A stretch of DNA of 64,000 bases from an uncultured virus (IMG/VR IMGVR_UViG_3300027770_000003) (IMGVR_UViG_3300027770_000003); one strand, 5' to 3'; positions 2,670-58,878 are shown, counted from the first letter of the stretch. The notes: generated by a model from the letters alone, not told the origin. A program made the numbers and translations.

Positions 2670-2721
2670 GATTGTTACCTTTATTCTTTCCGACCCGTAG
2701 GTCTTTTGGTTGTAGAAGAAC

Positions 2722-2751
2722 ATCATAACCATGCCCACGCTGTTATTGCAA
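2722..2751 (-). promoter_or_regulatory. SigA-like promoter TTGCAA-N18-TATGAT
   Basis: Lies between a terminator and the DUF932 gene; shares upstream TTGAGTA(A)G with the promoter at 743-772. Confidence 0.55.
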
Positions 2752-11543: not shown

Positions 11544-11954
11544 TTACTCTTCTAGCAACCTTTGGAGCAGAGTTTTTAGATCGCCAAGATCGTTACTGCT
11601 ATTGGGTATTACGCTAATATCAATATCTTTTTTTCTTTCTAAGTTTGCATCAACACACAGAGTGCAAGTGCAACCTTGTCTGTATCTCACTACTGTGCCA
11701 TGCACTGCAAGATTAGATACACGAGCAGATTTCTGAAGTGGTGTTCTGTCTTGTGGAGAAAGCCCACCCCACACTCCATAAACTTCTTTGATGCCTATGT
11801 CTAAACATTCTTGCCAAACTGGGCATACATTACAGATAGTTTTAGCGATGGCGTAATACTGTTCGGGATGTGGGGAATCAAAAGGTGGGAACCATATGTC
11901 TCCTGCTAGTTTGTTGCACAACGAATCCTGCATCCATTCGGGAGTAGTCTTCAT
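11544..11954 (-). CDS. whiB: WhiB-family regulator with an extra C-terminal HGT...CxCxxC domain
   Basis: WMQDSLC...CNVCPVWQEC...GVWGG, then HGTVVRYRQGCTCTLC. Confidence 0.9.
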   Translation of the reverse strand: MKTTPEWMQDSLCNKLAGDIWFPPFDSPHPEQYYAIAKTICNVCPVWQECLDIGIKEVYGVWGGLSPQDRTPLQKSARVSNLAVHGTVVRYRQGCTCTLCVDANLERKKDIDISVIPNSSNDLGDLKTLLQRLLEE

Positions 11955-12250
11955 GCGTTAGTCTCACGGTATAACGCAAGAGCAATAATTGCGTATGACG
12001 CAAGATCTATTAAAGAGTCCTCTATACCTTCGTTTACTAGTTTGCTACCTTTAGCAGCGCTTTGCAATCGGATTACTTTATCGTTTGCTCTAATAAGAGT
12101 CCCAATCCAACTAGGGACACCCCAATCAGCAGATGCACGAACATTTGCGAGAGGATCTTCAGCAGTGCCGTAATCTTTTCCTTTTTTGCTATGTAGTTCT
12201 CGCAACTCATCTAGGATTTGGAAGAACATTGGATTTCCGTATTGGTTCAT
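11951..12250 (-). CDS. Nucleotide modification associated domain 1 (DUF1599-like) protein
   Basis: KKGKDYG...DKVIRL...EGIEDSLIDLASYAII. Confidence 0.75.
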   Translation of the reverse strand: MNQYGNPMFFQILDELRELHSKKGKDYGTAEDPLANVRASADWGVPSWIGTLIRANDKVIRLQSAAKGSKLVNEGIEDSLIDLASYAIIALALYRETNA

Positions 12251-12678
12251 TCTTCATCTCCTGTTTCTACCCAAGCACTAAGATCGTCCATCATGTAAAA
12301 GACTGGGATGCCCAATCTTTCTGCTTCAAGTACCTCATCAATAGTTCCAAGCGAACTTTCGGAATCATGAACTAGAACAGCATCACAACGCTTTAGTATC
12401 TGAAAGCAGTATTCATTCCAATGACCAACACTGTGCTGATGTCTCTTTTGCCAGTGGTATGTAAGATTAGGAATAATCGGGAGACAAATACCCGATGTGT
12501 ACAATTCTTCTGCTATGTCTATAGCATCATTACAGTTATCCTCAAAGTCTTCGTGTACATATGGCCCTGCTATGTAAACGTGGGGCAAAACCAGGTGAGC
12601 AAGAGTCCTTAAAAACTCCTTGTTTGCACCCTCTTCTAATATGTCTTCCGAGTAGTTACGCAAATGAAATCCTCTCAC
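12247..12678 (-). CDS. Nucleoside 2-deoxyribosyltransferase-like protein (DUF4406/DUF1937-like)
   Basis: VYIAGPY...LKRCDAV...SLGTIDE...LGIPVF. Confidence 0.7.
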   Translation of the reverse strand: MRGFHLRNYSEDILEEGANKEFLRTLAHLVLPHVYIAGPYVHEDFEDNCNDAIDIAEELYTSGICLPIIPNLTYHWQKRHQHSVGHWNEYCFQILKRCDAVLVHDSESSLGTIDEVLEAERLGIPVFYMMDDLSAWVETGDEE

Positions 12679-12680
12679 TA

Positions 12681-12752
12681 TTAGTATCTGTTCATACTAG
12701 ATCGTGAGAGGAAGTAAAAGCAAGCAAGGGCAAATAGCACTATAAATCTCAT
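12681..12752 (-). CDS. Hydrophobic micropeptide (23 aa)
   Basis: MRFIVLFALACFYFLSRSSMNRY with AGGAG RBS. Confidence 0.45.
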   Translation of the reverse strand: MRFIVLFALACFYFLSRSSMNRY

Positions 12753-12796
12753 GTTGTACTCCTGATGTTGGACTAATTTATCCAACCCTACTACAA

Positions 12797-13039
12797 CTAT
12801 TTAGTTGTGGTATTCCAGTGGTACACGGCTTGGTGAAGAACCCCTAAAACATCGTCAGGATTCTCGTCATCATTCTCTAAGGCTTGGCAATAACTATTTG
12901 CTGCTTTGATAATGCTTTCAGCATTAGCCAGTTTCTTAGCAAATGAATCAACCAGTTGGCGTAGTGCCTGCTTATCGTCATACGCCCTAGCGAGAGAGAC
13001 TTGAAGATCTTGAATTACTGCAAACTCAAATGATTCCAT
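12797..13039 (-). CDS. Hypothetical coiled-coil protein
   Basis: 80-aa ORF with GAGG RBS. Confidence 0.65.
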   Translation of the reverse strand: MESFEFAVIQDLQVSLARAYDDKQALRQLVDSFAKKLANAESIIKAANSYCQALENDDENPDDVLGVLHQAVYHWNTTTK

Positions 13040-13066
13040 AAAACCTCATTTCATAGGTTATATACC

Positions 13067-13095
13067 AGCGTACATCCTATGAATGGTCTTGTCAA
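13067..13095 (-). promoter_or_regulatory. SigA promoter TTGACA-N17-TACGCT
   Basis: Perfect -35 box, TANNNT -10 box. Confidence 0.75.
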
Positions 13096-14528
13096 GCATC
13101 ATCCGAAAGATCTAGGACATCTTGGTACATGGTATTGGCTTGATGGGCGTTTAATCCCCCACTTGACAACTGCCTAGTGACATCCCCAGCACTCTGCCCA
13201 AACAAGCGACTCAACACTCCACTGCTTCCACGAGCCTCTACTTCTAAGCGAACCATATCCCGTGTATCACTTATGTTCCTAAACTTCTCAACAAGGTTAA
13301 AGAGCCTGTCTACTTCTCCTGAAAGTGCTGGGTCAAGACCTTGACCTTCTAGTTCTTCAGCGAAGCGAGCGAACAAAACACGACTCACTTGCATCTCCAA
13401 CATTGCCCTCAATGCGGCTTGTAACTGATCCTTAGTTTTAATCTCTACAGGCAACTTAAAGCCACACTCAGAATCTTGTCGGAAAGCAGGGCAACGAGCG
13501 CTGAGATAGCAACTATTGCATTGACGTAAAAGGTTGCCTTTATACGAAATTACTGGTATCTTTTCAACGCCTAATTCTTCAGATTCTTCATCACCAGCAA
13601 GGGTTTGAGCGAGTTGTGGAGTGAATTGCTCAATACCAATGACAGGTAGTAATACTTTGTCATCCTCGTGCCGCATCTCAGCACCTCGGATACTAATACT
13701 TGACCCCCTAGGAGCCACATTTGGAACGGAAGGCACATTGCTGGGATAGTTACTATCCGTGACACTTTCTGATAGACCAATTTCTTGCTCATCATCAAGT
13801 TCTTGAGGCTCATAGACCCCAAAAGTTGTCTTTTCCCATGCTTGCCAAGACACGATTGCAAGCCTTGCTACCTCAGAGTTATCATCTTGAACAATGGCAT
13901 CGTAGTCAATACCTAGTTTAATGATGTCGTTTCGGTGCTTCTTTCGGGCGGAATCTTTCTGTTGTGCTGGGTATCGGCGTAGCCCATGACCATCCCAAAC
14001 CTGAGTCTCGCCATAACGAACGGCAGATGTCCAAGAACCCACAATTACTGAATCCCAAGGCAGTGAAGCAATAACATCGGGCTTGGACGACAACCCAATC
14101 AATTTGGCATCCCACCTTTGGACTAGGTTTCTAATGCGGGATATTGTTTTGCCATTAACTGCTTTGTCGCTGATTGCTGCTCTGCCATTCTTCTGGCATA
14201 ACCACGCAAGTCGTTCCATATCGTCTGGGTCATTCCATACAGGAATATAGCGTTCACCTAGCCAAGTACCGTCATAATCGGGTCTTCCTATGACCATTGC
14301 AATGTTTTCGTAGTGCTGTCTGACAAAATCGTCATAGCGACTGACATCCTCATCAGTCTCCGAGGTGTACAGAACGATGTCCCCAGCAGGGAACATTACA
14401 GACAAATCAAGTTCTTTTTTCTTAGGAATTGGCAAATGGGTGAGATTCACTGCGTATTGCGTGACACCTGATGCCTGAAGCAATGACCTGTGGGATGCCT
14501 TTTCAGCATTGGCAAAGTAAACTTTCAT
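13092..14528 (-). CDS. TGT/DpdA-like TIM-barrel protein (degenerate active site) fused to a Cys-rich C-terminal domain
   Basis: IPVW, LIGL...LPWDSVIVGSWTSAVRYG pattern; C-terminal CNSCYLSARCPAF...C. Confidence 0.6.
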   Translation of the reverse strand: MKVYFANAEKASHRSLLQASGVTQYAVNLTHLPIPKKKELDLSVMFPAGDIVLYTSETDEDVSRYDDFVRQHYENIAMVIGRPDYDGTWLGERYIPVWNDPDDMERLAWLCQKNGRAAISDKAVNGKTISRIRNLVQRWDAKLIGLSSKPDVIASLPWDSVIVGSWTSAVRYGETQVWDGHGLRRYPAQQKDSARKKHRNDIIKLGIDYDAIVQDDNSEVARLAIVSWQAWEKTTFGVYEPQELDDEQEIGLSESVTDSNYPSNVPSVPNVAPRGSSISIRGAEMRHEDDKVLLPVIGIEQFTPQLAQTLAGDEESEELGVEKIPVISYKGNLLRQCNSCYLSARCPAFRQDSECGFKLPVEIKTKDQLQAALRAMLEMQVSRVLFARFAEELEGQGLDPALSGEVDRLFNLVEKFRNISDTRDMVRLEVEARGSSGVLSRLFGQSAGDVTRQLSSGGLNAHQANTMYQDVLDLSDDA

Positions 14529-15010
14529 TCAGAGGCTCCTACGTCTTTGTAGAGAGACTGTACATCAATTTCATGTGCTAGATCACTCCATATCTGGCGC
14601 TCTTTGGGCTTATTATCTCGCCATTCTGGGCGAACAAAGTTAGGCAAACAAACTAAAATGCTGGGAATAGCATCCTGCATTACAAGCGTGACAGTCTCAG
14701 GATTGGTATCCACAAACCAATCAATCTTTCCGTAGACTGCGTTCAAGTCACGAACACGGTCACGGAAGGCTGTTGGTCCTTTTCCTTTCACCGTATCTGC
14801 AAGTGCAAACTTATAGCCTTCTCGTTTAGCCCAAGCGTTTAACATTTCAGGATCAATGTCATTACCACCAAGAATAATCATTCTTCCGTGATACCTTGCG
14901 TACAAGGCTTCGTACAATTTTTGACCATCAGGTATTGGTTGTCTTGCGCCTGGAACCATTGCCTTATCAGTTGGTGCGTAGGCTAAAACGTCAAAGGTGA
15001 CTACGAGCAC
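14525..15010 (-). CDS. HAD-fold-like protein (degenerate motif I)
   Basis: MLVVTFDVLA start and FVDTNP resemble HAD motifs I and IV. Confidence 0.5.
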   Translation of the reverse strand: MLVVTFDVLAYAPTDKAMVPGARQPIPDGQKLYEALYARYHGRMIILGGNDIDPEMLNAWAKREGYKFALADTVKGKGPTAFRDRVRDLNAVYGKIDWFVDTNPETVTLVMQDAIPSILVCLPNFVRPEWRDNKPKERQIWSDLAHEIDVQSLYKDVGASE

Positions 15011-15468
15011 TAGTCGTACATACCCATTTGTGTGCGCTCTTTATGAGCAACATACCCTGAACCTACTGGGCAATAATGGCAAAGGTACTGACGATTGGCT
15101 TTTGGAACACCAACTTTACGACCAATGGTCTTAGACTCATCTTCCCAGTCAATGCAACTACCTTTAGGTGCACCATGTCGTTGGAAACACTTAAGTGCTT
15201 CTACTTTAAGATCGTCACGAACTTCACGAACTTCAATCTCATTCTTCATCAATTCTTTTTTAATGCCTGTTTCACCATCTAATGCATCATAGGTTGCTTG
15301 ATCGCATCGGTATATCTGAGACATATGCGATTCAGGTGAAGGATCTTGAGCACGACCTAGGTGCATCTTGATAATCTCTTGTAACTCCATGTCATTATCT
15401 GCGTTACCGTCATAGTCCCGCATTTTGTGCATTGTCCCGCATGAATTACAAACTAATAGTCTTGGCAT
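15010..15468 (-). CDS. Zn-binding hypothetical protein
   Basis: CNSC, CFQRH...C, YLCHYCPV. Confidence 0.7.
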   Translation of the reverse strand: MPRLLVCNSCGTMHKMRDYDGNADNDMELQEIIKMHLGRAQDPSPESHMSQIYRCDQATYDALDGETGIKKELMKNEIEVREVRDDLKVEALKCFQRHGAPKGSCIDWEDESKTIGRKVGVPKANRQYLCHYCPVGSGYVAHKERTQMGMYD

Positions 15469-16202: not shown

Positions 16203-17033
16203 TTAATTCTTTCCAACCTTAGTTGAACCAATTTTAGCAGGCTTGCCAAGAGATGCTCCAGTAACTGAACCAAATGAAATCGCTGGTGCACCTGGCTGAC
16301 CTGGGCCTTGCTGTGTTGCTGGTGGTGTACTTGCTCCAGCGTTAATGGTCTGTGATGATGAGCGAGCATCTGTATTATTTGCTTGAATGGTAGGGGCGCT
16401 AGTATTGCCACTATAAGTTGCAGCACCTGCTACAGCAGGCTTTTGTCTTGGTCCACGAGCAACTGGAGTTCGTGCACCTGATCTAGTTTGCTGGTCTCTA
16501 GCCGTTCTTTGTGCTCTTTGCTCATCAGTGCGTGGTGTTTTAGGTTTTGCACCTTGTTGACCTTGCGTTGCAGGTTCATTACCGCTGGGGTTGTAAGCAT
16601 TAAGGTTTTGTCCACCCATACCTTGTTGGTTTACCTTCATGCCAGAGTCAGCACCGAACCCCGTAAAATCTCCAATGTGAATACTGTTGTCAATATTTCC
16701 ACCACCGCCACTATCAGCAGGGCCTGCTGCATTACCAGAAACTCCACCTTTAGAACCTCTACCTTTTAACCAGCCTCCACGACCACGAGGGCGCATTCCT
16801 CTTGCTGATACCTGCCAGCCATTCTGCCAACCAATTTGGTTCATCATGTTTGCGCCCAAACCAGTACCTGACCCCTGTGCGTTGTTTGGCATATCAGAAG
16901 CCCCAAAGTTCTTGCTCACACCTGCTGATGGTGCTTGAAATTGTGGTGCTTGGGGCGCTTCTCCACGATTAAGTCTTCCCGTAGCGTTATACAACGGCTG
17001 TTGGCTGACTCCACCAAATCTATTTTCAGGCAT
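16203..17033 (-). CDS. Gly/Gln/Asn-rich low-complexity protein
   Basis: 276 aa, disordered composition. Confidence 0.75.
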   Translation of the reverse strand: MPENRFGGVSQQPLYNATGRLNRGEAPQAPQFQAPSAGVSKNFGASDMPNNAQGSGTGLGANMMNQIGWQNGWQVSARGMRPRGRGGWLKGRGSKGGVSGNAAGPADSGGGGNIDNSIHIGDFTGFGADSGMKVNQQGMGGQNLNAYNPSGNEPATQGQQGAKPKTPRTDEQRAQRTARDQQTRSGARTPVARGPRQKPAVAGAATYSGNTSAPTIQANNTDARSSSQTINAGASTPPATQQGPGQPGAPAISFGSVTGASLGKPAKIGSTKVGKN

Positions 17034-17039
17034 AACCTA

Positions 17040-17360
17040 TTATACCCAAAGACTTTGCATAGAATATCGCCCTGATCCACTGAACTGATCATCTGTCATT
17101 TGTGCTCGTTGCATCATGACTGGAGCACCTGATACCCATGAACGATAATTAGGGCTAAAACGATCAATTGACAGCACATCTGCCACACCAAGTTCTTGCT
17201 TAACAAACCCTCTACGCTCAGGCATTAGTTGCTGAGGAACTGTGGGGCGAATTGCACGAATAGTTGCAGGATCAGAAATAGCAGAATCTAGGGCAATGTC
17301 AACCAGCATCTCTTCACGAGATTGCCAAGGTCTACGAGTGCGAAAGTTGTCTACGGGCAC
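17040..17360 (-). CDS. Hypothetical, putative virion protein
   Basis: 106-aa coupled ORF. Confidence 0.7.
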   Translation of the reverse strand: MPVDNFRTRRPWQSREEMLVDIALDSAISDPATIRAIRPTVPQQLMPERRGFVKQELGVADVLSIDRFSPNYRSWVSGAPVMMQRAQMTDDQFSGSGRYSMQSLWV

Positions 17361-17581
17361 TATTTATCCCAATTAAGTTCTGTTCTCGCCATTGGGTTCA
17401 TGCGCCCTGCTCCAGTAGTTTTACCACTAGGAGTCAAAAAGCCCTCTGATTTAAGATGAGCCTCGTAATCAGATGAGTCACCTTGCATGTGTTTACCCAA
17501 CGCTGCGTCAAACTTATCTTTATAGGCATACATATCTACCCTGCGATTAGGGTGAAACTCTGTACGTTCTCCGTTAGCCAT
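17360..17581 (-). CDS. Small protein with shared N-terminal motif (NGERTEFHPNRRV)
   Basis: TAATG coupling. Confidence 0.7.
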   Translation of the reverse strand: MANGERTEFHPNRRVDMYAYKDKFDAALGKHMQGDSSDYEAHLKSEGFLTPSGKTTGAGRMNPMARTELNWDK

Positions 17582-18072
17582 TAGTACTCTGAACGGTTAC
17601 GATATGCGTCTTTAATATCTCCACGAGAAAACGGTTGATCTTGTCCCTTATCCCGTTGTTTGCGGTAATGGTTAAGCATATCTTGCGCTTCATATTCTGA
17701 AACACGTTCAAGATCAAAACCATTTTGACGCAAAGGTGATGCAATAGAGTAACTATCACGAAAGTCTTGTTCCGCTTGGTGCTCAGGTTCTGTTGTTCCG
17801 TATTCATCGTAATGTACGCCCTCTTCATACTCATCTAAAGCAGAATTAAGATGCCCTGCAAGTACTCCTGACAAACGTGGAAGATCCGAACGGCCTTTTG
17901 GAGGTGTGTAGTCAGATGAGCCTTTTGGTTTAGCAGTTATTCTTGGTTTTGCAACCTTTTGAACACGAGGGTCATCACCAAAGCCAACACCGATTTCAGC
18001 GTACCTGCTACCTAATGCTTCTTTAGTAACCTTACGGTTTGAATGATGTCGGGTATCGTCACCTCTAGGCAT
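17581..18072 (-). CDS. Protein with shared N-terminal motif (RGDDTRHHSNRKV)
   Basis: TAATG coupling. Confidence 0.75.
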   Translation of the reverse strand: MPRGDDTRHHSNRKVTKEALGSRYAEIGVGFGDDPRVQKVAKPRITAKPKGSSDYTPPKGRSDLPRLSGVLAGHLNSALDEYEEGVHYDEYGTTEPEHQAEQDFRDSYSIASPLRQNGFDLERVSEYEAQDMLNHYRKQRDKGQDQPFSRGDIKDAYRNRSEY

Positions 18073-18323
18073 TAGTAACCCTTTTCTGTTTCGCTAAATC
18101 CTGAATCCATACCTTGTACGCCTTCAGCATCAGATGTTTTGTCATTGCCCCAATGTTCTGGTGCTTCTGGATTTTGATCATGTGCTTCGTTTGCTCCACA
18201 CATTGGGCAATAATCCTCTTTACCGTAGTTAGGGCTAGTCATTGCAGCCATTTTTGCAATGTCAAGCGCATAACGACTTACTCCACGCTTTGGATGATTA
18301 CGAGTGTCTTCACCTTTAGGCAT
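18072..18323 (-). CDS. Small protein with shared N-terminal motif (KGEDTRNHPKRGV)
   Basis: TAATG coupling; CPMC. Confidence 0.75.
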   Translation of the reverse strand: MPKGEDTRNHPKRGVSRYALDIAKMAAMTSPNYGKEDYCPMCGANEAHDQNPEAPEHWGNDKTSDAEGVQGMDSGFSETEKGY

Positions 18324-19705
18324 TATGGCTTCTCCGTTCGTGGATTCTTTGGCTTAGATGTTGTTGGGCGACCAGAACTTTTAGCGTTTTGCGCTTTTGC
18401 GCTTGTCTGTGTTGCTGGACCGCCTGTTGAAAGAACATTTGCATTCTTATTTGCAGATGTAGCCCTACCTGCTGTACTGGCTACTGTTGGACCACTGTTA
18501 ATAGTTGCGCCTTTAACATTGCCATAGGTGTTGCCATCACCAGTGTTTGCTTGAATAGTGGCATAGTTGTTATTGATTGAACCACTGCCACCACCTGCTG
18601 GAGGTGCACCACCGCCACCATTGTCATTGAAAGCATTAAAGTTTTGCCCACCCATACCTTGTTGATTTACAGTATGACCACCTTGAAAGTGTTGTGACCG
18701 TGAAGAAGTAGGTGCCATCGGAGATGATGTTGATGTAGAAGGAGTTGGTCCTGCTGAAGGAGTTGGAGTTGGTCCTGCTGAAGGAGTTGGAGTTGGTAGA
18801 GGTGACCCTTTAGCCGAATCATGTCCACCAAAGAAGCCACGAAGACGAGCACCCATTCCACCTTTAGCAGACTTATCTGCTGTTGCGGGTGGCATTGACT
18901 TGGTAATACCAGCGTCTTCATCAGACCAGTCATGGAATTCAGGTCCAGGTGTACCACGACCTTCAGGTGCTGTTGTTGGATCAAACCCACGCAAGCCACT
19001 GTCACGGTCTCTACGAATACGATTCATAGCGGCTGTACCTTTTGCTTGGCTCTTTGTACCAGTTACTGGTTCTGACTTACCTGTCTTGTCCGTATTTAGG
19101 ATGTATGCTCCACCAGACTTCTTATCAGCAATAGGGGCAGAAACTTCTGGATCCTTTGCTTCTTCAGAAGATGTCGGAACATCGGGGGAGTTCCACAATG
19201 CTTTTGCTTCAGCAGAGTCTGCTTTAACTTGTTTGCCTTCATCAGAATTCAAATAGTCTTGGTTTTCTTTTTCGGCTGCATCAGTAATAGCATCCATCTT
19301 CTTTGTGCCCTTAAACCTACCCAAGTCAACAACTTGCTTTGAACTATCTTTACGAGGAACTTGTGCAGTAGCAGGGGCAGTAGGCTTCTCTTCTACTTTA
19401 GGCTTCATTTCCGTTTTAGGCATTGCTTCTGCTTTAGGCTTCTTACCTGCTTTAGGCTTCTTGCCAGTTTCTTTTAGCACAGTCCCTAGTTCTTTGGGGG
19501 TTGGTGGCTTATTATCACTTTCTTTTGCTGCTACTTCTTCGTCAGACAGTTCCTTGTAACTTCCACCAGCAGCCGTTACATCTGTCATTAACTTGGCTCT
19601 ATCCTTATCGTTCATTTTGGCAGAATACCTTTTTTTGGCATCTTTATATGTCTTAGCCGTAGCCTCTGGTTTCCACTTGAATTCGTTTGGATCTTTCTTA
19701 GCCAC
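18323..19705 (-). CDS. Lys/Pro/Gly-rich low-complexity protein
   Basis: 460 aa, disordered composition; GTG start with GAGGAG RBS. Confidence 0.8.
   Translation of the reverse strand: MAKKDPNEFKWKPEATAKTYKDAKKRYSAKMNDKDRAKLMTDVTAAGGSYKELSDEEVAAKESDNKPPTPKELGTVLKETGKKPKAGKKPKAEAMPKTEMKPKVEEKPTAPATAQVPRKDSSKQVVDLGRFKGTKKMDAITDAAEKENQDYLNSDEGKQVKADSAEAKALWNSPDVPTSSEEAKDPEVSAPIADKKSGGAYILNTDKTGKSEPVTGTKSQAKGTAAMNRIRRDRDSGLRGFDPTTAPEGRGTPGPEFHDWSDEDAGITKSMPPATADKSAKGGMGARLRGFFGGHDSAKGSPLPTPTPSAGPTPTPSAGPTPSTSTSSPMAPTSSRSQHFQGGHTVNQQGMGGQNFNAFNDNGGGGAPPAGGGSGSINNNYATIQANTGDGNTYGNVKGATINSGPTVASTAGRATSANKNANVLSTGGPATQTSAKAQNAKSSGRPTTSKPKNPRTEKP
18741..18797. repeat. 24-bp in-frame tandem repeat encoding PTPTPSAG
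   Basis: GGAGTTGGTCCTGCTGAAGGAGTT repeated about 2.4 times. Confidence 0.85.
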
Positions 19706-19750: not shown

Positions 19751-20251
19751 TCAACGCCAAGAAGGGCGAAGAGAACTGAGTTTGGCACGGCGTTCAGCGT
19801 CAATGTATTCAGCATTCTGACGCTCGTCTACACGGGGAATACCTTTAGGTCCTACTTTGCCATCATTAGTCAAAACAACTGGGGCTGCTCCAGGAGGGGC
19901 AAACTTCTGACCCCTTGACTCATAGGCAATGCCTGTCCAGAGATTGAACTCATCGGGCCAAATGTAGTCACCTGCGTTAATGCGCTCACCCTTGTGCACA
20001 CCACGAGAATACTGACGGGCATTTAAACGGCTCAGTGTTCCTGTAATTTTGTCTTGCCTACGATTGGAAGACATTGTCCCAAGGTATCCGTCTGGATACG
20101 TTGTGTCTGGCATAGAACGATACCCAGCCAGTTGGTAATCCTTGTTATTACGGAATACTGGGGCAGGACCAAACTGGGGCTGTGATCCAGCGCCAGGTGG
20201 CTCTGAAGGCGAACTCCAGTTATTAAAGGAGGTTTGTGAAGAGCCAGCCAC
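19751..20251 (-). CDS. Hypothetical, putative virion protein
   Basis: YPDGYLGT...RRQDK...YSRGVHKGERI; C-terminal PSWR. Confidence 0.7.
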   Translation of the reverse strand: MAGSSQTSFNNWSSPSEPPGAGSQPQFGPAPVFRNNKDYQLAGYRSMPDTTYPDGYLGTMSSNRRQDKITGTLSRLNARQYSRGVHKGERINAGDYIWPDEFNLWTGIAYESRGQKFAPPGAAPVVLTNDGKVGPKGIPRVDERQNAEYIDAERRAKLSSLRPSWR

Positions 20252-20385
20252 TAGACGTTTCCAGCCATACCCTGATTAGCAGTAGTAACAAACCCACCAG
20301 CAGAACCAGCCACTGCGGTGATAGGGCGTGGCTTTTCCTTCTTAACAACTTTTTCTTTCTTTACTTTCTTCTTTATAACGACCAT
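20251..20385 (-). CDS. Small basic protein (44 aa)
   Basis: MVVIKKKVKKEK...NQGMAGNV; coupled on both sides. Confidence 0.55.
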   Translation of the reverse strand: MVVIKKKVKKEKVVKKEKPRPITAVAGSAGGFVTTANQGMAGNV

Positions 20386-20606
20386 TACTTCCACCTCATC
20401 TTGTTATTTGGATCCATTGGATCTATTGGTTCAGCATCACTATTCCAGTCAAATGGTTTATCTGGAAGACCACCTGTTTTAGTTGGTGGTTTCTTTGGCG
20501 GTTGTTTCCCACCACCACCTGTAGACGTGCGAGCACCACCTTTTTTCCACTCTTTAGTATTGAGGTAAGGACCGTCAATCTCGTCTAATCGGTGAGTTAG
20601 TGGCAT
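20385..20606 (-). CDS. Small hypothetical protein (DKPFDW motif)
   Basis: 73-aa ORF. Confidence 0.6.
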   Translation of the reverse strand: MPLTHRLDEIDGPYLNTKEWKKGGARTSTGGGGKQPPKKPPTKTGGLPDKPFDWNSDAEPIDPMDPNNKMRWK

Positions 20607-20934: not shown

Positions 20935-21240
20935 TTAGTACCCGTTGCGAAGAGTATCTTCAATAGTACTTGCGCCGTTAGCACCAATATCGTGTTGCAC
21001 GTTTACAACAATTTTACCTCTACCTGTGGGGCGAGATGGGCGCATAATGCCATGTGGAGGTGTTGGGTCGGCTTCTGTTGGGGCAAGTTCTGGTGCATCT
21101 TGTTCCCAATCAAATGGACGATCTGAATGAGCGCCACCTGCGGGATGAGCCTTATATGCAGCATCACGAGAAGCGAACTTACTACGACCAAGGTACGGAG
21201 TAATGTCTATAATGGTTGCGTGTTTACGGATGCGTCCCAC
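20935..21240 (-). CDS. Hypothetical protein (DRPFDW motif)
   Basis: GTG start with GAGG RBS. Confidence 0.6.
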   Translation of the reverse strand: MGRIRKHATIIDITPYLGRSKFASRDAAYKAHPAGGAHSDRPFDWEQDAPELAPTEADPTPPHGIMRPSRPTGRGKIVVNVQHDIGANGASTIEDTLRNGY

Positions 21241-21243
21241 TGT

Positions 21244-21534
21244 CTACCTCACAACTGGTTTAAAGGAAATAGCGGAAATGCTCTCTCCGTTCTCACCTAT
21301 AATATCATCAAATCCCACAATAAAACAAAGGTCTATACCACGAGGGGCGACAAAACCACGAGCAATAGCGCATGCTTTAGCGCCTTGGTTTACAGCACTT
21401 GCGCCGATGGCACGAATCTTAGGCAAGTGACCTGCAACTACCGATCTAGCGAGGATAGAACCCACACTTTGAGGGTTGCTTGATCCTGATACTTTTAGAA
21501 CGTCTTCAACTTTAGCATTCAGTTCCTGGGACAT
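21244..21534 (-). CDS. spoVS: SpoVS-family (Alba-like nucleic-acid-binding) protein
   Basis: VLKVSGSSNPQSV...AIGASAVNQGAKACAIARGFVAPRGIDL. Confidence 0.9.
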   Translation of the reverse strand: MSQELNAKVEDVLKVSGSSNPQSVGSILARSVVAGHLPKIRAIGASAVNQGAKACAIARGFVAPRGIDLCFIVGFDDIIGENGESISAISFKPVVR

Positions 21535-22345: not shown

Positions 22346-23131
22346 TTACTCCTTGTACTCAGTAATAATTAAGTACCCTGATGTTGTGCAATGCTTATGG
22401 GGAACATCCCTCATATTTTTACGCACAAGCACACGCTGTAGCCAACGGTCTGTGCCATCATAGCGGGCTTGGAAAGGCTTACGACCATGCACGGTTGTAG
22501 CGTTATCAATGATGAGAAGATCACCTGTTTGAAGAATAACTTCTTTGGTGTGCTTCTCAATGGCTTTGTTTAACTCTTCCAAAGCCACCACAGCATCTTG
22601 CCCAAGGCCTACCATAACGGCTTTGTCATACTTCAGTTGGTAAGTCCCATCCCCAAGTGCGTATAGGACAGCAAGGTCTCTTGGCTGATCAGGTTCTCCG
22701 TTAGTTCTAAAACTTTCATCAACAGAAGTACGAAACCAAGGTTGCTTAAGTACATGTATGCACTTGTCGCTTAAATCAGGAAGGATGTCTTCAAGGTCGG
22801 CGTAAGTGGTTGCAGCAGCAGGGTCTCCTCGTAGGCACAACAACAAAACATAGTCGGGTAAATAAGGGTGAAAGCATGACTCAGTGTGTAAGTCTAAGTT
22901 GACTTTAGACGATGTAGATATTTGTGAATACTCTGTCTTTGGGTTTGGCAAAATGTTCTGAACGATACTTCCTTGTTGTTCTTGCAAATATCCAACGGGT
23001 TGACCAAGAGAACGTGCAATACCAAAAAGTAATTTATGCGTTGTAGGGGCTACCTCAGCAGATAACACGGGAACCAAGGGTGTTGCAGGGATGTGCCCAA
23101 TATCTTGATGTTGAAGAAGTGAGATGGTCAT
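22346..23131 (-). CDS. TauD/clavaminate synthase-like Fe(II)/2-oxoglutarate dioxygenase (AsnO-like)
   Basis: LHTE (HxE), PDYVLLLCLR, IIDN..TVHGR, DGTDRWLQR. Confidence 0.85.
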   Translation of the reverse strand: MTISLLQHQDIGHIPATPLVPVLSAEVAPTTHKLLFGIARSLGQPVGYLQEQQGSIVQNILPNPKTEYSQISTSSKVNLDLHTESCFHPYLPDYVLLLCLRGDPAAATTYADLEDILPDLSDKCIHVLKQPWFRTSVDESFRTNGEPDQPRDLAVLYALGDGTYQLKYDKAVMVGLGQDAVVALEELNKAIEKHTKEVILQTGDLLIIDNATTVHGRKPFQARYDGTDRWLQRVLVRKNMRDVPHKHCTTSGYLIITEYKE

Positions 23132-23613
23132 GGCGTAAACCTATGTTGACGAACTTCTTTGCCTGACATCCCAATACGGCGTGACAACTCACGAGAAACA
23201 ACCTGAGCACCACGCTCACAGCGATCAAACACTGTATCTACCAACTTACGGTAGGCACGTTTCTGCATGTGAATCTCAATCTGATCAACAATCTTTGGGT
23301 CAACATCACGCTTGGCCTTAGCCACAGTCACCAAATCACCTTTGGCTTTGTCACCCCACTGCTCAATCAATACGCTGGATTGTAGATATTCCAAAATGTT
23401 ACGCTCACGTTCTTCTGTAATCTCAGCCTGTACCAATTGTGCTTTGGCGAATACTAACCATGCCATGAAGTCTGTATACAACTCCATTAAATCAAAGTCA
23501 CCAATGTCCCCAATGTTTCTAGGTAACTCAGGTAGCAGACCGCTTGGTTTTTTTGGTAACGGAAAGTTTTGTAGGAACAAATCCATCTCTGGTGTTTGGG
23601 TCATCATTGTCAT
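23128..23613 (-). CDS. Helical hypothetical protein, possible UvsY-like recombination mediator
   Basis: Coiled-coil character; position in the recA cluster. Confidence 0.5.
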   Translation of the reverse strand: MTMMTQTPEMDLFLQNFPLPKKPSGLLPELPRNIGDIGDFDLMELYTDFMAWLVFAKAQLVQAEITEERERNILEYLQSSVLIEQWGDKAKGDLVTVAKAKRDVDPKIVDQIEIHMQKRAYRKLVDTVFDRCERGAQVVSRELSRRIGMSGKEVRQHRFTP

Positions 23614-24481
23614 CTTCACTCCTCCAACATGTCTTTTTGTATGAACAGAACTTGCAACCAGTTGAGGATGAGGACTCTGCCCACATTGGTCTCATTGGCG
23701 GTATATCTTTTTGTAATGCTGTCATCAAACGCTTGCAATTGTCAAGCATCGGTTGAACTAGTTCGGGAGTAAATCCTACAACAAACTCTTTAACTTCTTG
23801 CGTAGGCTTCCATTCGTACAGGTACACCATCTCATGAATACCTGTGCAGTACATGTATAGCAACCCTTGTTTGATATGGCTAGGAAATGGTTGGCGAATC
23901 TTCTTCCACAACCCATCTAGGGTAATGTCTCCTTTTTGGTATGAGTTAAACAAGTCTGGTGCTTCAAACCTAACTGTTCCTAAACCAACTGACTTAATCT
24001 CAATCAGCGCACGACCATTAGCATCATTGATAATGCCATCAGCATGCCCAAGAATCATGTGCTCTTCATTGCTTAGTGGCACTTCCCGATATAGCGGATA
24101 AGGGATACCACAACTTGGGCAAGATTTAGGGCTAATTGCTTCCCATTTGTGATTACATATCGTGTTAGAACACTGCCACCAACCTTCTAAAACTCCAGCA
24201 TGGTTTAACCAATCTTGCCATTTAGCATGAATGTAGTGTCCTTCAGCAAATATGTTAAGGCGTTGAAACGAAAAGGTTTCAGGGTCTTTAGGTTGTTCTC
24301 TAATGGTGTACCAGTTGGCACGAGGACACCAATCACGCTTGGCTAGATCACTTGGGTGAATGTGGGCAGTGTCTCTAGTGCTCTCACGATCATCTCTATC
24401 TTTAAGGATCTGTATAGCAACTGTGGGCAAAACACGACCATTCATAGTCAACAACTTTAGATAGTCATTACGCTCACTCAT
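23528..24481 (-). CDS. Cas4-like PD-(D/E)XK exonuclease
   Basis: HPSDL...CPR, GHADG...IEIKS, QGLLYM, CKFCSYKKTC. Confidence 0.85.
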   Translation of the reverse strand: MSERNDYLKLLTMNGRVLPTVAIQILKDRDDRESTRDTAHIHPSDLAKRDWCPRANWYTIREQPKDPETFSFQRLNIFAEGHYIHAKWQDWLNHAGVLEGWWQCSNTICNHKWEAISPKSCPSCGIPYPLYREVPLSNEEHMILGHADGIINDANGRALIEIKSVGLGTVRFEAPDLFNSYQKGDITLDGLWKKIRQPFPSHIKQGLLYMYCTGIHEMVYLYEWKPTQEVKEFVVGFTPELVQPMLDNCKRLMTALQKDIPPMRPMWAESSSSTGCKFCSYKKTCWRSEDDNDDPNTRDGFVPTKLSVTKKTKRSAT

Positions 24482-24701
24482 CGTGGAAGAAACCCGCACG
24501 TTGTAGTACTTGCATACTTTTTGCTATCTTTGTACTTTTTGTTCTGTCACTTGGTTGTTTGGCGAACGCAGAGCGCTTACCAGTTAATAATTCTTTCATG
24601 GCTTCATGATAATGAAACCGAGCACGTTTTAAATCAATTAATCTATTCTTGTGGTAATTATTAGCAAGGCGCTCCGCCTCTTTATATTGCATTGGTGTCA
24701 T
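24474..24701 (-). CDS. Hypothetical basic protein
   Basis: 75-aa ORF with GGAG RBS. Confidence 0.55.
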   Translation of the reverse strand: MTPMQYKEAERLANNYHKNRLIDLKRARFHYHEAMKELLTGKRSAFAKQPSDRTKSTKIAKSMQVLQRAGFFHDE

Positions 24702-42792: not shown

Positions 42793-44672
42793 GAAGCAAC
42801 CACAGTAAAAGGAACACCACCAAGCATTGGGTTATTTCCGATAGCAATCCCACGTTTTCCACTTGCCTCTACTCCTGAAAATTTATGAACAATCTTCTGT
42901 GGAACATCTACAACCACACCACCACGGGTGCATTGCACAGTCAATTCAATCTCTCCATAGAAGCGATCTTGTTTAAAAGGTAGTTGTGCTATTGGTTGAG
43001 CAAGTTCCCACTCCCACATGGCATCTTCTCCAGACTCGTATAAGTATTGTGAAAATTTACCAAGCACTAACATGGCCCTTGTTTCACCAATTGCTCCAAC
43101 AATGCTTACTAGGAATTTACAAGGATGGTTATTTATGGACATTACAAATGGATTTTCTTTAGTTCCAAAACGTGTCCAAGCACTGGTGGTCTCTGGAGGA
43201 CCAAGTGCATAAGTTAACCCTGAACCCGTAGCATTTTTTACTGTTGTATCCCGAGTATTGCTTGCATTAGAAACATGTTCTGCCCACCAAAAAGACATCT
43301 TTCCAGAGAACGTAAAGTCAATGCCACCTGCATTTGTTGCTGTATCACCAACAGATTTCCAAAAGGCCATTCCTTCGTTAGATATCCCCGTGTAAAAGTT
43401 AAACTTGTTACTTTGTGCAGTCTTAGCAAATATGTCTTGCAATAGAAAGTGTGAGTCACTCTTACCTTGATCCCAATTACACTTGTCTAAGAAGTTGGTG
43501 AGTCCAGCCGTTGTTTGATCATAGATAATTCGTTCTTGAGTACCTGCCGCTGGTGGATCAGGAATGCCATCTGTTCCATCAATTTCACTTTTTGGAAGGA
43601 CAGGCATGTCTGTTAGGAATGTTTTTTGCTGGACAAACCCAATATACAGGGCTTGCATTTGCACAGCAACTGAGCATTGCGTAGGAATAAAGCCACGAGT
43701 GAATTTATTAAAAGTAACTTGACTACTAGTAACAAATCCTTCAATCATCATCCAATCACTAAACACCACACGAATAGGTTGCGGAACAAGAAATGCTTTG
43801 TTTCCTAAATTAGAAGTAAAGTTATTCATTCTGGTTGAGTCGTATACAGTTTCCTTTACTGTGCTGGTCGCATCGTTTGGATCAACTTTTTCTTGTTCTT
43901 CTGCGGCTAACGAAAGAGCATTGTTAGTAATAGCCTTAACAACATCTTTAGCAAGACCAACTCCCAAGATATCGTCTAGCACCATGATGTCTGCAAGTAC
44001 ACCAATTTCAGTTACCCAAGAAGGATCATATTTTGCGTCATCTTGAAGGAATCTAGAAGTTACTTGCTCAAAACTACTATTGTCTGTACCTACTGCTGCT
44101 CGGTTACCTTTTAGTAATTTTCCACCCATAAGGTATTTTCCACTATTTACCTCGGCTTCTCTGTTAAACAAAAGATCAAATGCATAGCCTGCTTTACCAG
44201 GAACTGGTTGGGTAAGTTGAGCAGGGTCTTGATTAAAGAAAAACTGCATACTAGTATCAGACTGGATTGCACGAGTAATGCTGTCTGGGTTAAACTGAAA
44301 GTTACACTTTAAGTTACTTAGTACTGATGGAGTGTCTGATCCAGAGGACTGTCTGGCATAAAATTCAGTTAATCTTCGCACATATCCACGATTGATGGTT
44401 GTTCCACCTACCGTATTTCTGGCTCTAACAGTGTCTCTTGTGCCAGGGTAAATGAATTTTGGGTTTTGTTCATACTGCGTAAACCCAGTTGAAGCAAGTC
44501 TTGCTTGTGCTTCTTGATTTTGAGTTTGAGTAAATGTTGAAAGTGCTTTTGATGTAACAGTACGAGTGTCCTTTGCATCAACAAACTTTTTCTTAATCGT
44601 AGTACTTGAAGTTTTGACAGCAGGAACCACTACCTTTTTATTATATTGTGCGTCTTCTCCGCCGTATGCCAT
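42789..44672 (-). CDS. Tail-tube initiator / baseplate protein
   Basis: FQFNPDSI, FDLLFNR, IEGFVTS...F...FIP; follows the tape measure gene. Confidence 0.65.
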   Translation of the reverse strand: MAYGGEDAQYNKKVVVPAVKTSSTTIKKKFVDAKDTRTVTSKALSTFTQTQNQEAQARLASTGFTQYEQNPKFIYPGTRDTVRARNTVGGTTINRGYVRRLTEFYARQSSGSDTPSVLSNLKCNFQFNPDSITRAIQSDTSMQFFFNQDPAQLTQPVPGKAGYAFDLLFNREAEVNSGKYLMGGKLLKGNRAAVGTDNSSFEQVTSRFLQDDAKYDPSWVTEIGVLADIMVLDDILGVGLAKDVVKAITNNALSLAAEEQEKVDPNDATSTVKETVYDSTRMNNFTSNLGNKAFLVPQPIRVVFSDWMMIEGFVTSSQVTFNKFTRGFIPTQCSVAVQMQALYIGFVQQKTFLTDMPVLPKSEIDGTDGIPDPPAAGTQERIIYDQTTAGLTNFLDKCNWDQGKSDSHFLLQDIFAKTAQSNKFNFYTGISNEGMAFWKSVGDTATNAGGIDFTFSGKMSFWWAEHVSNASNTRDTTVKNATGSGLTYALGPPETTSAWTRFGTKENPFVMSINNHPCKFLVSIVGAIGETRAMLVLGKFSQYLYESGEDAMWEWELAQPIAQLPFKQDRFYGEIELTVQCTRGGVVVDVPQKIVHKFSGVEASGKRGIAIGNNPMLGGVPFTVVAS

Positions 44673-47389
44673 TAGCCATTCCTCAACAGTTCTTTTCTAA
44701 GTTCTCGTTCCATAATTTGGGCAATTTCTTGCGCCATCTTTCTTGCGTCTTGTTGTGTACTACCAGAGGAAGTTACATAGATATTAGGAGCAATTGTAAC
44801 ATTAGTTCCACCTTGTACTTGTACGTTTGGTGCTCCACGAGATGGTCCACTAGGCATAGGGTCACCACGATCAACACCAGCAGTGTGGGCAGCAACTTTT
44901 GCTTTCTGCATCCAACTTTCTGTCTTAGCCATTGGACCACCTTCGTGTTTCCAAGGGACATAATTCTCACTCTTTCCACCGCCTAATATCCAAGCACCTT
45001 TAATATTGTTGATTGGATCATAAAGGTCTTCGTTAGTTTGGATACCGATTTTCTTCAAGCGATCTGGTCCAAGGCTGCCTTTCATATTGATTTGGAATAA
45101 ACCATATGAACGATCTACTCCAACTCCGTTATATGCTCCAGGTGTCCACGCAGATTCTCTACCTGCAATTGCCATCATGTTCAACAGGTGCTGTCCACGA
45201 AACCCTCGCTTGTACATCAAAGTTGCAAGTGTTACAGGATCAATTGTTCCTGCTGGAGGAGTTCCTGCGGATTGTGGAGTTGAACTAGAAGTCTTTCCAG
45301 TGCTTTGTGCTTGCACACTGCTACTACCACTTCCAGAAGCACCACCCATTGCTTGGTGGTTTTCAGAAGATATTGCACTTATTTGTTGACTTAGGGACAT
45401 TCCTTGAAATGTACTGTACGTCCCTGCTCCACCACTACCACTTTTGCCTACGTACTTATCTCCAATAATGTAAGCACCAGTATCTGATCCACTGCTTCCT
45501 TTAGATGTTCCTGGAGGAGCGCCCCATTTAGAACCATTCTTTTCATATTCCCATCGGGAGTTAGGAAGTTCTGCTGGTTGAATGTGCCAAGGCTCACCGT
45601 TGACATCTCCAAAAGTCTTAAGTCCAAATCGGGCAGCATTCTTCTGTACCCAGTCAAGGTCTCCAACAAGGTCGGCAGCAAGTCCAATTTCGTGCATAGA
45701 CTTTCCTGGAGGTGCCGCAGGAGCACCGCTTGTGTGTTTGTACTGTTCCCCATTCCATTCAGCATCGCCCTCTGATCCATCCGTTACTTTTGAATAGCGA
45801 GAAAGGAATAGTTGCTTTTGTGTACCCTCTGAACGGATACCTTCACCAATACCTACGTTGGGGTTCTCCGCAAACATCTGTAGCAGGCGGTTCTTAAATG
45901 TTGTGTTCATTGGCGCAAATGTAGATGCAGTTGCTACTTGAGAAAGTGGAACACGGTTAGCAGGCTTAGAGTAGCCCATAGGTACAGACACACCAGATCG
46001 TTGTTTTTTATCTGCTGGCATAGGGTCACCACTAGCCATTACACCGCCAGCACCAATCATACCCATAGCAAGCGGTGTTAACGTACCTCCAGACATTACA
46101 CCTGAGAGGACACCCAGCCCCATCAGTCCCATTCCACCAAGTTTTCTTGCCATTCCACCTTTAGTAGATACCCCTGCCCCAACAATTCCAGAAAGTTTAT
46201 CTTCAAATGCGCCTAAAGCCTTAGTTACTTTCTGAATTCCTTCTTCCATGCGGGCGTAGTTATCTGCTTGACGCTTATAGAAGTTCTCATCTCTTCCTTC
46301 TTTTACACGGGCAGTCTCTTCTGCTTGTGTTGCAAAGTTCTTTTCAATTCCCATCATCTTTCGTTGTTCTTTATTGGAAGGGTCGTACATTCCCTTCCCA
46401 CCCTTCTTCTGATACGCAACATTAGAATCGGCATAGTCAAGAACCATGTCAATCATGTCTGGTGGAACACCCATTGATTCCAACCGTGTTCTTGTTACCG
46501 ACCCAGATTGACGTGCTCCCTTAAGCACTCCAGCATTAGTTAAACCAGAATTCTTTGTAATGTCTTTAATAACTTGGTCAATGCCACGTTGTTGTCCACC
46601 TACTCCATAGATACCTGTTCCAAGCATCATGGTCATACGGTTGTTTACTTGGGCAGATCCCAAAGTATTAACCATGTTTGCCATGTCCCCAGTTGAATAG
46701 GAATACCCAGACACGGCACGAAGCCCAGCAATACCACCTGCTTGTTTAGATGCTTCAATCCCTGTACTTGCTTGAAGCGAAAGCAACGTATCAATTCCAC
46801 CATAACCAAGTCGTTGATTTTGAAGTGGTTCTCGCAGTTGGTGGTAATACTGATTGTTTGTAATTCCTTTGTTTTGCTGGTAGTAAACACCAAGTTTGTC
46901 AGCACCAAGAGATCTTTGGTAATTGCTATTTATACGATTGTCTAGTGCCTGAAGACTAGATTGAAATACTTGCATTGCAGTACCAGCAAGCATTCCTCCC
47001 GTTCTTCCAACACCCCCTCCTCCTCCTCCTCCTCCTCCACCGCCCCCACCACCAGCGGCTTGGTTAATAGTGATGTTTTGAATTGCTTGCTTAGCGTCTG
47101 TTGAGTTGGCTTGGATTGTTGGGTTACTAGTATTGTTATTGGCTGAACCTAGTGGTAACTCAATACCACCAGCACTTTTATTTGCTTGTGTTCCTGGAAG
47201 ACCACCAGCCTTTTGGATACCCTGTAAGGCTTTAAGAGTTTTATCTAATTTGGTATTAATTTGCGTTAGGTTTTTACTAAGCCATTCAAAGTCACCACGA
47301 ACGCCTTTAACGCTTTTAGCCAACTTATCAATAGATTCCGTATCAAGTTTGAACTTGGTACGAAGATCTCCTAGGTTTTTCTCTGCCAT
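44672..47389 (-). CDS. Tape measure protein with M15 peptidase and SLT domains
   Basis: Position; APPGKSMHEIGLAAD...EPWH; AGRES...SYGLFQIN. Confidence 0.85.
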   Translation of the reverse strand: MAEKNLGDLRTKFKLDTESIDKLAKSVKGVRGDFEWLSKNLTQINTKLDKTLKALQGIQKAGGLPGTQANKSAGGIELPLGSANNNTSNPTIQANSTDAKQAIQNITINQAAGGGGGGGGGGGGGGVGRTGGMLAGTAMQVFQSSLQALDNRINSNYQRSLGADKLGVYYQQNKGITNNQYYHQLREPLQNQRLGYGGIDTLLSLQASTGIEASKQAGGIAGLRAVSGYSYSTGDMANMVNTLGSAQVNNRMTMMLGTGIYGVGGQQRGIDQVIKDITKNSGLTNAGVLKGARQSGSVTRTRLESMGVPPDMIDMVLDYADSNVAYQKKGGKGMYDPSNKEQRKMMGIEKNFATQAEETARVKEGRDENFYKRQADNYARMEEGIQKVTKALGAFEDKLSGIVGAGVSTKGGMARKLGGMGLMGLGVLSGVMSGGTLTPLAMGMIGAGGVMASGDPMPADKKQRSGVSVPMGYSKPANRVPLSQVATASTFAPMNTTFKNRLLQMFAENPNVGIGEGIRSEGTQKQLFLSRYSKVTDGSEGDAEWNGEQYKHTSGAPAAPPGKSMHEIGLAADLVGDLDWVQKNAARFGLKTFGDVNGEPWHIQPAELPNSRWEYEKNGSKWGAPPGTSKGSSGSDTGAYIIGDKYVGKSGSGGAGTYSTFQGMSLSQQISAISSENHQAMGGASGSGSSSVQAQSTGKTSSSTPQSAGTPPAGTIDPVTLATLMYKRGFRGQHLLNMMAIAGRESAWTPGAYNGVGVDRSYGLFQINMKGSLGPDRLKKIGIQTNEDLYDPINNIKGAWILGGGKSENYVPWKHEGGPMAKTESWMQKAKVAAHTAGVDRGDPMPSGPSRGAPNVQVQGGTNVTIAPNIYVTSSGSTQQDARKMAQEIAQIMERELRKELLRNG

Positions 47390-58876: not shown

Positions 58877-58878
58877 GC

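Follow-up and report, generated by a model that had tools for sequence, protein, structure and literature searches.

The capsid targeting sequence of phage T4 is a short common peptide that marks unrelated internal proteins for packaging and ejection; it is N-terminal, targets the head scaffold and is cut off. The curli proteins CsgB and CsgA, which belong to a secreted bacterial fibre system, carry strand-turn-strand repeats rich in N, Q, G and S, and one templates the other by way of their related repeats. The phage protein Ltp is a folded lipoprotein at the cell surface, with a lipoprotein signal peptide. In the available part of a paper, Ltp of TP-J34 and TP-778L is described as acting electrostatically on the tape measure protein's (TMP's) C-terminus (PMC11480721, citing Bebeacua et al. 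2013). The payload signals of extracellular contractile injection systems (eCIS; PVC and Afp) are, according to the accessible portions of two reports, disordered peptides that direct unrelated proteins into the contractile tail-tube lumen, where a TMP is also present (PMC11495950, 10.1101/2023.11.13.566157). Amyloid signalling motifs, as outlined in the accessible text of one study, are about 25 residues long, with N, Q, G, V and I over-represented and K, P and L under-represented, and can occur as pseudorepeats (10.1101/2020.01.06.895854). Here, we describe a 64,000-nucleotide stretch of DNA from an uncultured virus (IMG/VR IMGVR_UViG_3300027770_000003; the whole stretch is referred to as the window) in which three phage proteins, a tail TMP, the protein g16203 and, more weakly, the protein g18323, carry a matched N/Q/G/S/T-rich peptide with one or two aliphatic or aromatic residues. 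Within one genome, the predicted TMP and the predicted homologues of g16203 and g18323 carry the same version of this peptide (motif 1), and the versions found in different lineages cannot be aligned with one another.

These proteins were compared with the amyloid signalling pairs covered by the available parts of two papers, namely BASS of Bell-domain/NLR gene pairs, Bab/Agp of E. coli and fungal HET-s/NWD2 (10.1101/2020.01.06.895854, 10.1101/2024.11.07.622273). As in those pairs, a peptide of about 15-25 residues is common to different proteins of one genome, with a similar length and composition (N/Q/G-rich, few hydrophobics, poor in K, P and L), and matching occurs within genomes across a diverse family, here of three versions. 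The amyloid pseudorepeats are split by Gly/Pro-rich loops; here, a second shared peptide, motif 2, is present twice in the g16203 homologues of one lineage (lineage B) and of contig L099. Unlike the amyloid pairs, no Bell, HeLo or pore-forming effector domain and no NLR was detected by Pfam, and the genes are not adjacent: four genes, over 1.3 kb, separate g16203 from g18323, and the TMP gene lies 25-27 kb away. The carriers here are phage proteins, one of them a tail protein, and there are three of them with up to three motifs in series, known from sequence. Like Ltp, which acts on a TMP, g16203 and g18323 are phage-encoded, putatively non-structural proteins with a putative action on the TMP; unlike Ltp, they are predicted to be disordered, have no signal peptide and copy an N-terminal TMP peptide. 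The eCIS signals stand at the N-terminus, depend on the AAA ATPase Pvc15 and do not copy a TMP segment, whereas the motifs described here are internal or C-terminal, and Pfam identified no Pvc15-like AAA ATPase among the tail genes of the window. In contrast to the T4 targeting sequence, the shared partner is a tail TMP and the tag is internal or C-terminal, and, unlike curli, there is no Pfam curlin repeat match at E ≤ 0.001. Membership of the amyloid (BASS/RHIM/HET-s), curlin, Ltp, eCIS-signal and T4-targeting systems therefore fails in each case on the defining architecture.

In the window, g16203 (16203..17033, minus strand) encodes a basic protein of 276 residues (pI 11.1, net charge +16) with motif 2, motif 1 and a conserved C-terminal tail, while g18323 (18323..19705, minus strand) encodes a basic protein of 460 residues (pI 9.6, net charge +17) in which a Lys/Pro/Ala-rich and variable region makes up the N-terminal two thirds and the C-terminal module consists of motif 2, motif 1 and a conserved tail. 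This tail (18326..18487, minus strand; TVASTAGRATS..VLSTGGPA..RAQNA..GRPTT..NPRTEKP) contains an element termed motif 3. The two proteins thus share a second motif in addition to motif 1, and a third in lineage B, in the same order along the chain. A preliminary description of the window had labelled both proteins disordered, which is supported by their hydrophobic content of only 14-15%, their richness in G, A, S, T, P, N and Q, and an ESM Atlas model of g18323 with a mean pLDDT of 0.41.

Motif 1, PTIQAN(N/S)TDA(R/K), is common to g16203 (residues 210-233, NTSAPTIQANNTDARSSSQTINAG; 16335..16406, minus strand) and the TMP (residues 86-110, NTSNPTIQANSTDAKQAIQNITINQ; 47060..47134, minus strand), where it is flanked on one side by a Gly-rich linker and on the other by 14 consecutive glycines. 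Motif 2, VNQQGMGGQN(L/F)NA(Y/F)N, is common to g16203 (residues 131-148, GMKVNQQGMGGQNLNAYN; 16590..16643, minus strand) and g18323 (residues 343-360, GHTVNQQGMGGQNFNAFN; 18626..18679, minus strand). Both matches had been proposed in the preliminary description and were recovered: PTIQANNTDAR of g16203 and PTIQANSTDAK of the TMP (residues 90-100, nucleotides 47090-47122, close to the 47094-47123 first given) agree at 9 of 11 positions, and VNQQGMGGQNLNAYN (g16203 residues 134-148) and VNQQGMGGQNFNAFN (g18323 residues 346-360) at 13 of 15. The motif 1 region of g18323 (residues 376-406, SINNNYATIQANTGDGNTYGNVKGATINSGP; 18488..18580, minus strand) has a gapped TMP match that is weak in this lineage and clear in lineage B. 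The ATIQANTGD previously noticed in g18323 is indeed present at residues 382-390, but in the window the direct match between the TMP and g18323 lacks significance (BLASTP E = 0.54, with its score attained in 276 of 2000 shuffles). A further suggested carrier, a 44-residue open reading frame (ORF) at 20251 with the sequence NQGMAGN, was discarded as a chance resemblance: it gave no match at E ≤ 1 in the all-against-all search of the window, and its G002 homologue reads NSSMAGN while motif 2 in that genome stays NQQGLGGQN.

Pairwise BLASTP gave E = 3e-6 over 18 residues for motif 2 in g16203 and g18323, and E = 7e-5 over 21 residues for motif 1 in g16203 and the TMP. Against all 86 minus-strand ORFs of the window, these values became 1.2e-4 and 0.002, respectively, and the two pairs were among the best non-trivial ones. 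Local alignment scores were also compared with 2000 composition-preserving shuffles per pair, and the observed score in the window was reached by none of the shuffles for g16203/g18323 and by one for TMP/g16203. Across the versions of motif 1, which are 14-34 residues long, the composition is N 22%, G 12%, A 12%, T 10%, I 8%, Q 6%, V 5%, P 3%, K 2% and L 1%.

The families of the two disordered proteins are small. Searches of 5.8 billion proteins returned 26 proteins at E ≤ 0.001 for g16203, the query itself included, and 26 for g18323, and a profile of the g18323 C-terminal module found 19 representative clusters among 1.84 billion proteins, in all 19 of which the module forms the C-terminal end; the 16 of these representatives that were scanned have no Pfam domain. 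Neither protein belongs to a Pfam (E ≤ 0.001), PHROG or NCBIfam family or has a relative among PDB sequences, g18323 has no tblastn match among isolated phages, and in a look-up of the ESM Atlas by features all structure rows fell below a TM-score of 0.5. As far as these searches indicate, g16203 and g18323 are restricted to one phage group. Alignments of 21 of the 26 g16203 matches and of 18 g18323 matches, made after near-duplicates and fragments had been set aside, showed conserved islands amid drifting sequence, with the motifs among those islands. Across the 21 aligned g16203-family members, G138 of motif 2 never varies, with G141, N143 and N148 reaching 90% conservation or more, while in motif 1 Q217 is invariant and N210, T211, A218, N219 and D222 are at least 90% conserved.

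All three genes were read in the fetched relatives with complete or near-complete genomes, and this revealed that motif 1 is replaced in concert. Version A, found in the window and in G002, c809 and c260, has the form PTIQANxTDAR, represented in the window by the TMP and g16203 sequences given above and by ATIQANTGD in g18323. Version B (AVVNDASSNNAFQ-type; G003, G004, G005 and G008) reads GSVINDASANNAIQ in the TMP, GAVVNDASSNNAFQ or GAVVNDASSNNAFQGNDNTFGGGG in the g16203 homologue and GAVVNDTSSNNAFQ or GAVVNDTSSNNAFQGNNNTFGNN in the g18323 homologue, and version C (NTSAN..APQIYAP-type; G012) reads NNTSANAISAPQIYAPRN, NTNTSANVNNAPQIYAPKN and NVNNSANINFAPQVIGES in the same three proteins, with a within-genome identity of 13 of 18 positions. 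Motif 2 switches jointly in the two disordered proteins, from NQQG(M/L)GGQN in A to T(F/Y)APQ(D/N)TSKNYG in B and TFG(S/D)Q(E/T)NLGRGDFGGG in C, and lineage B has a third element (motif 3), MAISTAGNA / MAISTGGNA, common to the g16203 and g18323 homologues. There is also finer co-variation within version A, at the tail of the motif: NNY(F/A)G is common in c809 to the TMP (...DARVINNYFGG) and to the homologue of g16203 (...DARQVNNYAGA), and (I)TIN in the window to the TMP (...QAIQNITINQ) and g16203 (...SSSQTINAG). The preliminary description had made much depend on co-conservation of the motif in homologous TMPs; this was borne out in the form of co-replacement, with three versions each common to three proteins.

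Cross-genome score matrices are block-diagonal by version, with TMP x g16203 scores of 53-110 within and 29-64 between versions and g16203 x g18323 scores of 80-139 within and 37-70 between; TMP x g18323 scores separate for version B only. In six genomes, the numbers of shuffles out of 2000 that reached the observed score were 1, 0, 0, 0, 0 and 1 for TMP/g16203, 0, 4, 2, 0, 0 and 5 for g16203/g18323, and 276, 77, 482, 44, 3 and 378 for TMP/g18323. All-against-all BLASTP of the minus-strand ORFs of G002 (145 of 164 ORFs), G003 (126 of 155) and G012 (122 of 143) gave within-proteome E values for motif-sharing pairs of 2.6e-4 and 5.6e-4 in G002, 7e-10 in G003 and 0.003 in G012, and found no fourth motif carrier among these ORFs. 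A profile of the g16203 family alone finds both the G002 TMP (E = 0.006) and the G002 g18323 homologue (E = 6.3e-4). Two more versions turn up in each of the expected families, on separate contigs, and may be linked within genomes as well: 'NQASANQ' occurs in the TMP of L039, in the g16203-family protein P0031 and in the g18323-family protein P0065, and 'DARTIQANQSDASQ' occurs in the TMP of L043 and the g16203 homologue of L099, whose g18323 homologue has RTIQANQS. Scans of IMG/VR with P0065 and P0060 for more linked genomes returned nothing. In contig L075 (G006:1-9000), the motif region of the g18323 homologue (NNVGAVQDIRIGGDNSGD) only loosely resembles that of its own TMP (GTVTNVQQVFVGNTRAPGG).

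The TMP gene (44672..47389, minus strand) encodes 905 residues with VanY-like and SLT muralytic domains. Its Pfam matches are limited to SLT, SLT_3 and VanY, with no curated TMP family and no PHROG or NCBIfam family, so the name is based on position, size and muralytic domains: upstream are sheath, gp19-like tube and hub-like genes, and downstream are baseplate J-like and P2 I-like genes. In isolated phages, the only tblastn matches were to the SLT domain, in five Streptomyces phage records. TMP N-termini were read in 40 of 44 IMG/VR homologues; the match of the other four, which were dropped, begins only beyond residue 18. In an alignment of 17 sequences, residues 10-58 contain 12 invariant columns and the helical part past the glycine tract aligns again, while within residues ~60-128, which hold motif 1, P79 alone reaches 90% conservation and at least six versions substitute for one another. 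On this alignment, TMP motif 1 is a hypervariable insert that appears to be displayed between glycine-rich linkers within an otherwise conserved N-terminal region. In the TMP of L050 (L050:1501-1818), the whole motif 1 segment is absent and the two glycine tracts are fused, which a natural deletion or an assembly collapse could explain; the segment therefore behaves as a displayed insert. The available part of the structural report on myovirus P7-1 places the C-terminus of the TMP at the tail tip and describes density that ceases to be helical nearer the top of the lumen (PMC12697256), and on this basis the TMP motif would be near the neck and the DNA end.

Codon usage was compared in the window alone. 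For motif 1, 14 of 21 residues are identical between g16203 and the TMP, and only 5 of those 14 codons are identical, which by a rough estimate is about what independent codon choice gives; the match is therefore probably held by selection and is not a recent DNA copy. For motif 2, 10 of 14 codons are identical between g16203 and g18323, so gene conversion between these neighbouring genes is possible. This bears on the explanation that the carriers do not interact at all, and that their likeness is kept by occasional gene conversion or module exchange of low-complexity spacers, or of segments that each do the same independent task. The codon identity of motif 2 in genes 1.3 kb apart, the compositional simplicity of the segments and the L050 TMP that dispenses with its segment are all consistent with this view. 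It is nevertheless quite unlikely, since the motif 1 codons point to amino acid identity under selection, composition-preserving shuffles rarely reach the observed scores, the motif cores are conserved islands in otherwise fast-drifting proteins, and every lineage involves this one trio of proteins, spread over 25-27 kb.

The simplest physical reason for co-changing peptides would be direct like-with-like β-strand pairing, by analogy with amyloid signalling. We therefore propose, with a probability of roughly one in three (0.35), that such docking ties g16203 and g18323 to the head-proximal end of the TMP. The motif peptides would act as docking strands in in-register parallel β pairing, of the steric-zipper or amyloid-signalling kind, and the partners would keep the same sequence with no need for a fourth co-varying protein because each residue stacks on its own kind. 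If the TMP N-terminus points toward the head, as in solved myovirus tails, parallel TMP copies in the tube would hold their motifs side by side; g16203 would dock on this site via motif 1 and would in turn recruit g18323 via motifs 2 and 3. Both proteins might then exit together with the TMP, either in front of the DNA or attached to it, and serve as co-ejected pilots or DNA tethers. A role as TMP-tethered proteins that bind or accompany the leading DNA is favoured because the g16203 and g18323 homologues are strongly basic in all nine genomes examined. Docking is the better-supported half of this proposal, and the virion-cargo role of g16203 and g18323 is a guess.

Several observations weigh against β-strand docking at the TMP. 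Some 25 kb separates the g16203 and g18323 genes from the tail module upstream of them; they have replication genes on one side and DNA-modification genes on the other, and lie among small genes of a kind often expressed early. This position among non-structural genes, together with the hypervariability of the motif, fits kin-specific exclusion equally well. In versions A and C, the direct match between the TMP and g18323 falls short of significance (276, 77, 482 and 378 of the 2000 shuffles), and BLASTP at E ≤ 0.05 did not list TMP/g16203 in G003 or g16203/g18323 in G012, where the shuffle test is the sole support. The identical codons of motif 2 belong here too, as does the number of fully linked versions, which is only three (that is, three independent lineages), the two further versions being unlinked. 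In addition, G006 has a g18323 homologue (525 residues) and no g16203 homologue at the syntenic place. Finally, there is no RHIM, HET-s or curlin Pfam match at E ≤ 0.001. In their co-replacement, the motifs do resemble amyloid signalling motif pairs.

Exclusion offers another account of the hypervariable TMP insert. In this scenario, g16203 and g18323 would remain in the cytoplasm of the infected cell that makes them and would hold up genome entry, either by catching the matching N-terminal motif of the TMP when a phage of their own type arrives or by competing with it for a host factor; arms races among related phages would diversify the motif, and each phage would keep a catcher matched to its own kind. 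Hypervariability in an otherwise conserved TMP N-terminus is what would be expected of a specificity determinant under diversifying selection, and the within-genome matching across three versions and the location of the genes outside the structural module, among small non-structural genes, also agree with exclusion. A TMP-targeting phage exclusion protein is known, Ltp of TP-J34, as reported in the available part of the source (PMC11480721). On the other side, direct reading of the N-termini of g16203 and g18323 (MPENRFGG... and MAKKDPNEF...) shows no signal peptide, hydrophobic leader or lipobox, so an encounter with the TMP would require the TMP N-terminus to enter the cytoplasm. A decoy would also seem to call for something simpler than two long proteins that have many further conserved islands, and the phage looks like a lytic myovirus, with no integrase or repressor among the Pfam matches of the 64-kb window, which would require exclusion to act within the lytic cycle. 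We consider kin-specific exclusion possible, if doubtful.

A doubtful explanation of similar standing is that the motif is a short linear motif read by a common third partner that co-changes between lineages, in which case the carriers need not touch; candidates include a phage tail-assembly chaperone or neck protein and a modifying enzyme, as well as factors in the envelope or cytoplasm of the host. Flexible Gly-rich or disordered stretches flank the displayed motif in every carrier, a typical setting for short linear motifs, and the lineages with different versions, whose TMPs are 51-56% identical, may infect different hosts. The highly conserved neighbours g17040 (17040-17360, minus strand; 78-85% identical in relatives) and g19751 (19751..20251, minus strand; 166 residues, directly upstream of g18323; 83-93% identical) could be candidates, but at 78-93% identity across the same lineages these obvious neighbours show no co-variation. 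Moreover, versions of 15-20 residues that cannot be aligned would mean that the binding site is rebuilt each time, and the within-genome identity over most positions in G012 exceeds the 3-6-residue core of a typical linear motif.

TMPs of several phages undergo proteolytic processing, and a shared processing site was the last explanation in our ranking. Here, a phage protease, such as a prohead protease or the HslV-like peptidase g58241, would cut all three proteins at the motif. A gene of the HslV/proteasome family lies, with a metallophosphoesterase gene, directly upstream of the portal gene (58241-60051, minus strand; both 75-90% identical in relatives), which would suit such a role. However, protease sites are usually 2-4 residues long and fixed, the HslV-like protein is 80-90% identical across the same lineages, and versions A, B and C have no residue in common at any fixed position, making this explanation highly improbable. 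Of the homotypic assembly, ejection or cleavage signal envisaged in the preliminary description, co-replacement thus fits a homotypic or common-partner signal, while cleavage fits poorly with versions of 15-20 residues that are exchanged whole.

Like-with-like docking could also be taken further, to a self-recognition barcode based on amyloid-like templating, although we regard this as unlikely. The TMP motif and the two prion-like proteins would then cross-seed only where their sequences agree. The phage would use this either to build a plug of protein, or a tether for the DNA, in the uppermost part of the tail, or to trap the TMP of incoming kin, which would lead to exclusion. Diversifying selection would yield new versions, with which all three genes would have to keep pace.

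The window is part of a myovirus-like phage genome in which essentially every gene is on the minus strand. The exact g16203 protein occurs on seven contigs, and since the longest of these has 98,582 bases, the genome size is probably near 98 kb. From 64 kb downwards, the order is portal, capsid, sheath, tube, hub-like gene, TMP and baseplate genes, followed by a replication block (DnaB, primase, SNF2 helicase, PolA and RecA), a run of small genes, and then a queuine-tRNA-ribosyltransferase-like gene, nucleotide-modification domains and a WhiB-family gene, the last of which suggests an actinobacterial host. g16203 and g18323 are within the small-gene run, 25-28 kb downstream of the TMP gene. 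A promoter and terminator scan of 13-23 kb gave 9 promoter-like sites (15.6 expected from shuffles) and 12 terminator-like sites (8.9 expected), which is not above the shuffles, and was uninformative on timing.

Between g16203 and g18323 are four small genes (17040..18323, minus strand; g17040, g17360, g17581 and g18072), in an arrangement that is syntenic in relatives. g17360, g17581 and g18072 are paralogues with a common N-terminal MP(K/R)G(E/D)DTRxHxxRxV followed by complete divergence, and the relatives L058, L059, L063, L074, L098 and L099 have three to five MPxGxDTRxHxxRxV genes between the two disordered genes. Because the upstream DNA is unlike and synonymous sites differ, this element appears to be conserved at the protein level, and it may be an N-terminal targeting or recognition tag. 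AlphaFold2 models of g19751 and g17040 had mean pLDDT values of 43.7 and 43.8. Together with the Cys-rich g15010 (15010-15468, minus strand) and the SpoVS-like g21244 (21244-21534, minus strand), these two proteins are 78-94% identical where the TMP is only 51-56% identical, and are as conserved as portal and capsid.

Other features of the window were also recorded. A queuine tRNA-ribosyltransferase-like gene (PHROG 887) adjoins DUF7768 and DUF1599 ('nucleotide modification associated') genes at 11951-14528 (minus strand), a group that could be a DNA base-modification module. BLASTP within the window proteome showed that the DUF932 protein g1611 (1611-2738, minus strand) and g23528 (23528-24499, minus strand) have a common 39-residue segment (36% identity, E = 1.7e-4), and that two small proteins (20385-20606 and 20935-21240, minus strand) share D(K/R)PFDWxxDA followed by a Pro-rich stretch (E = 0.006). 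A TauD/TfdA-family dioxygenase gene (22346-23131, minus strand) has no counterpart in the fully fetched relatives G002, G003 and G012.

Judging by titles and the beginnings of abstracts, no paper was found on a peptide common to a TMP and other phage proteins. Amyloid signalling was discovered in fungi and bacteria through the signature of peptide pairs that match and change together, and the same signature in a phage would extend the principle to virion assembly or ejection, or to competition between phages. It links the tail TMP with two otherwise featureless disordered proteins, and its three or more natural versions are a ready-made comparison of specificity, matched versus swapped. The finding thereby gives a handle on two phage unknowns, namely the role of long disordered 'hypothetical' proteins and that of the head-proximal end of the TMP.

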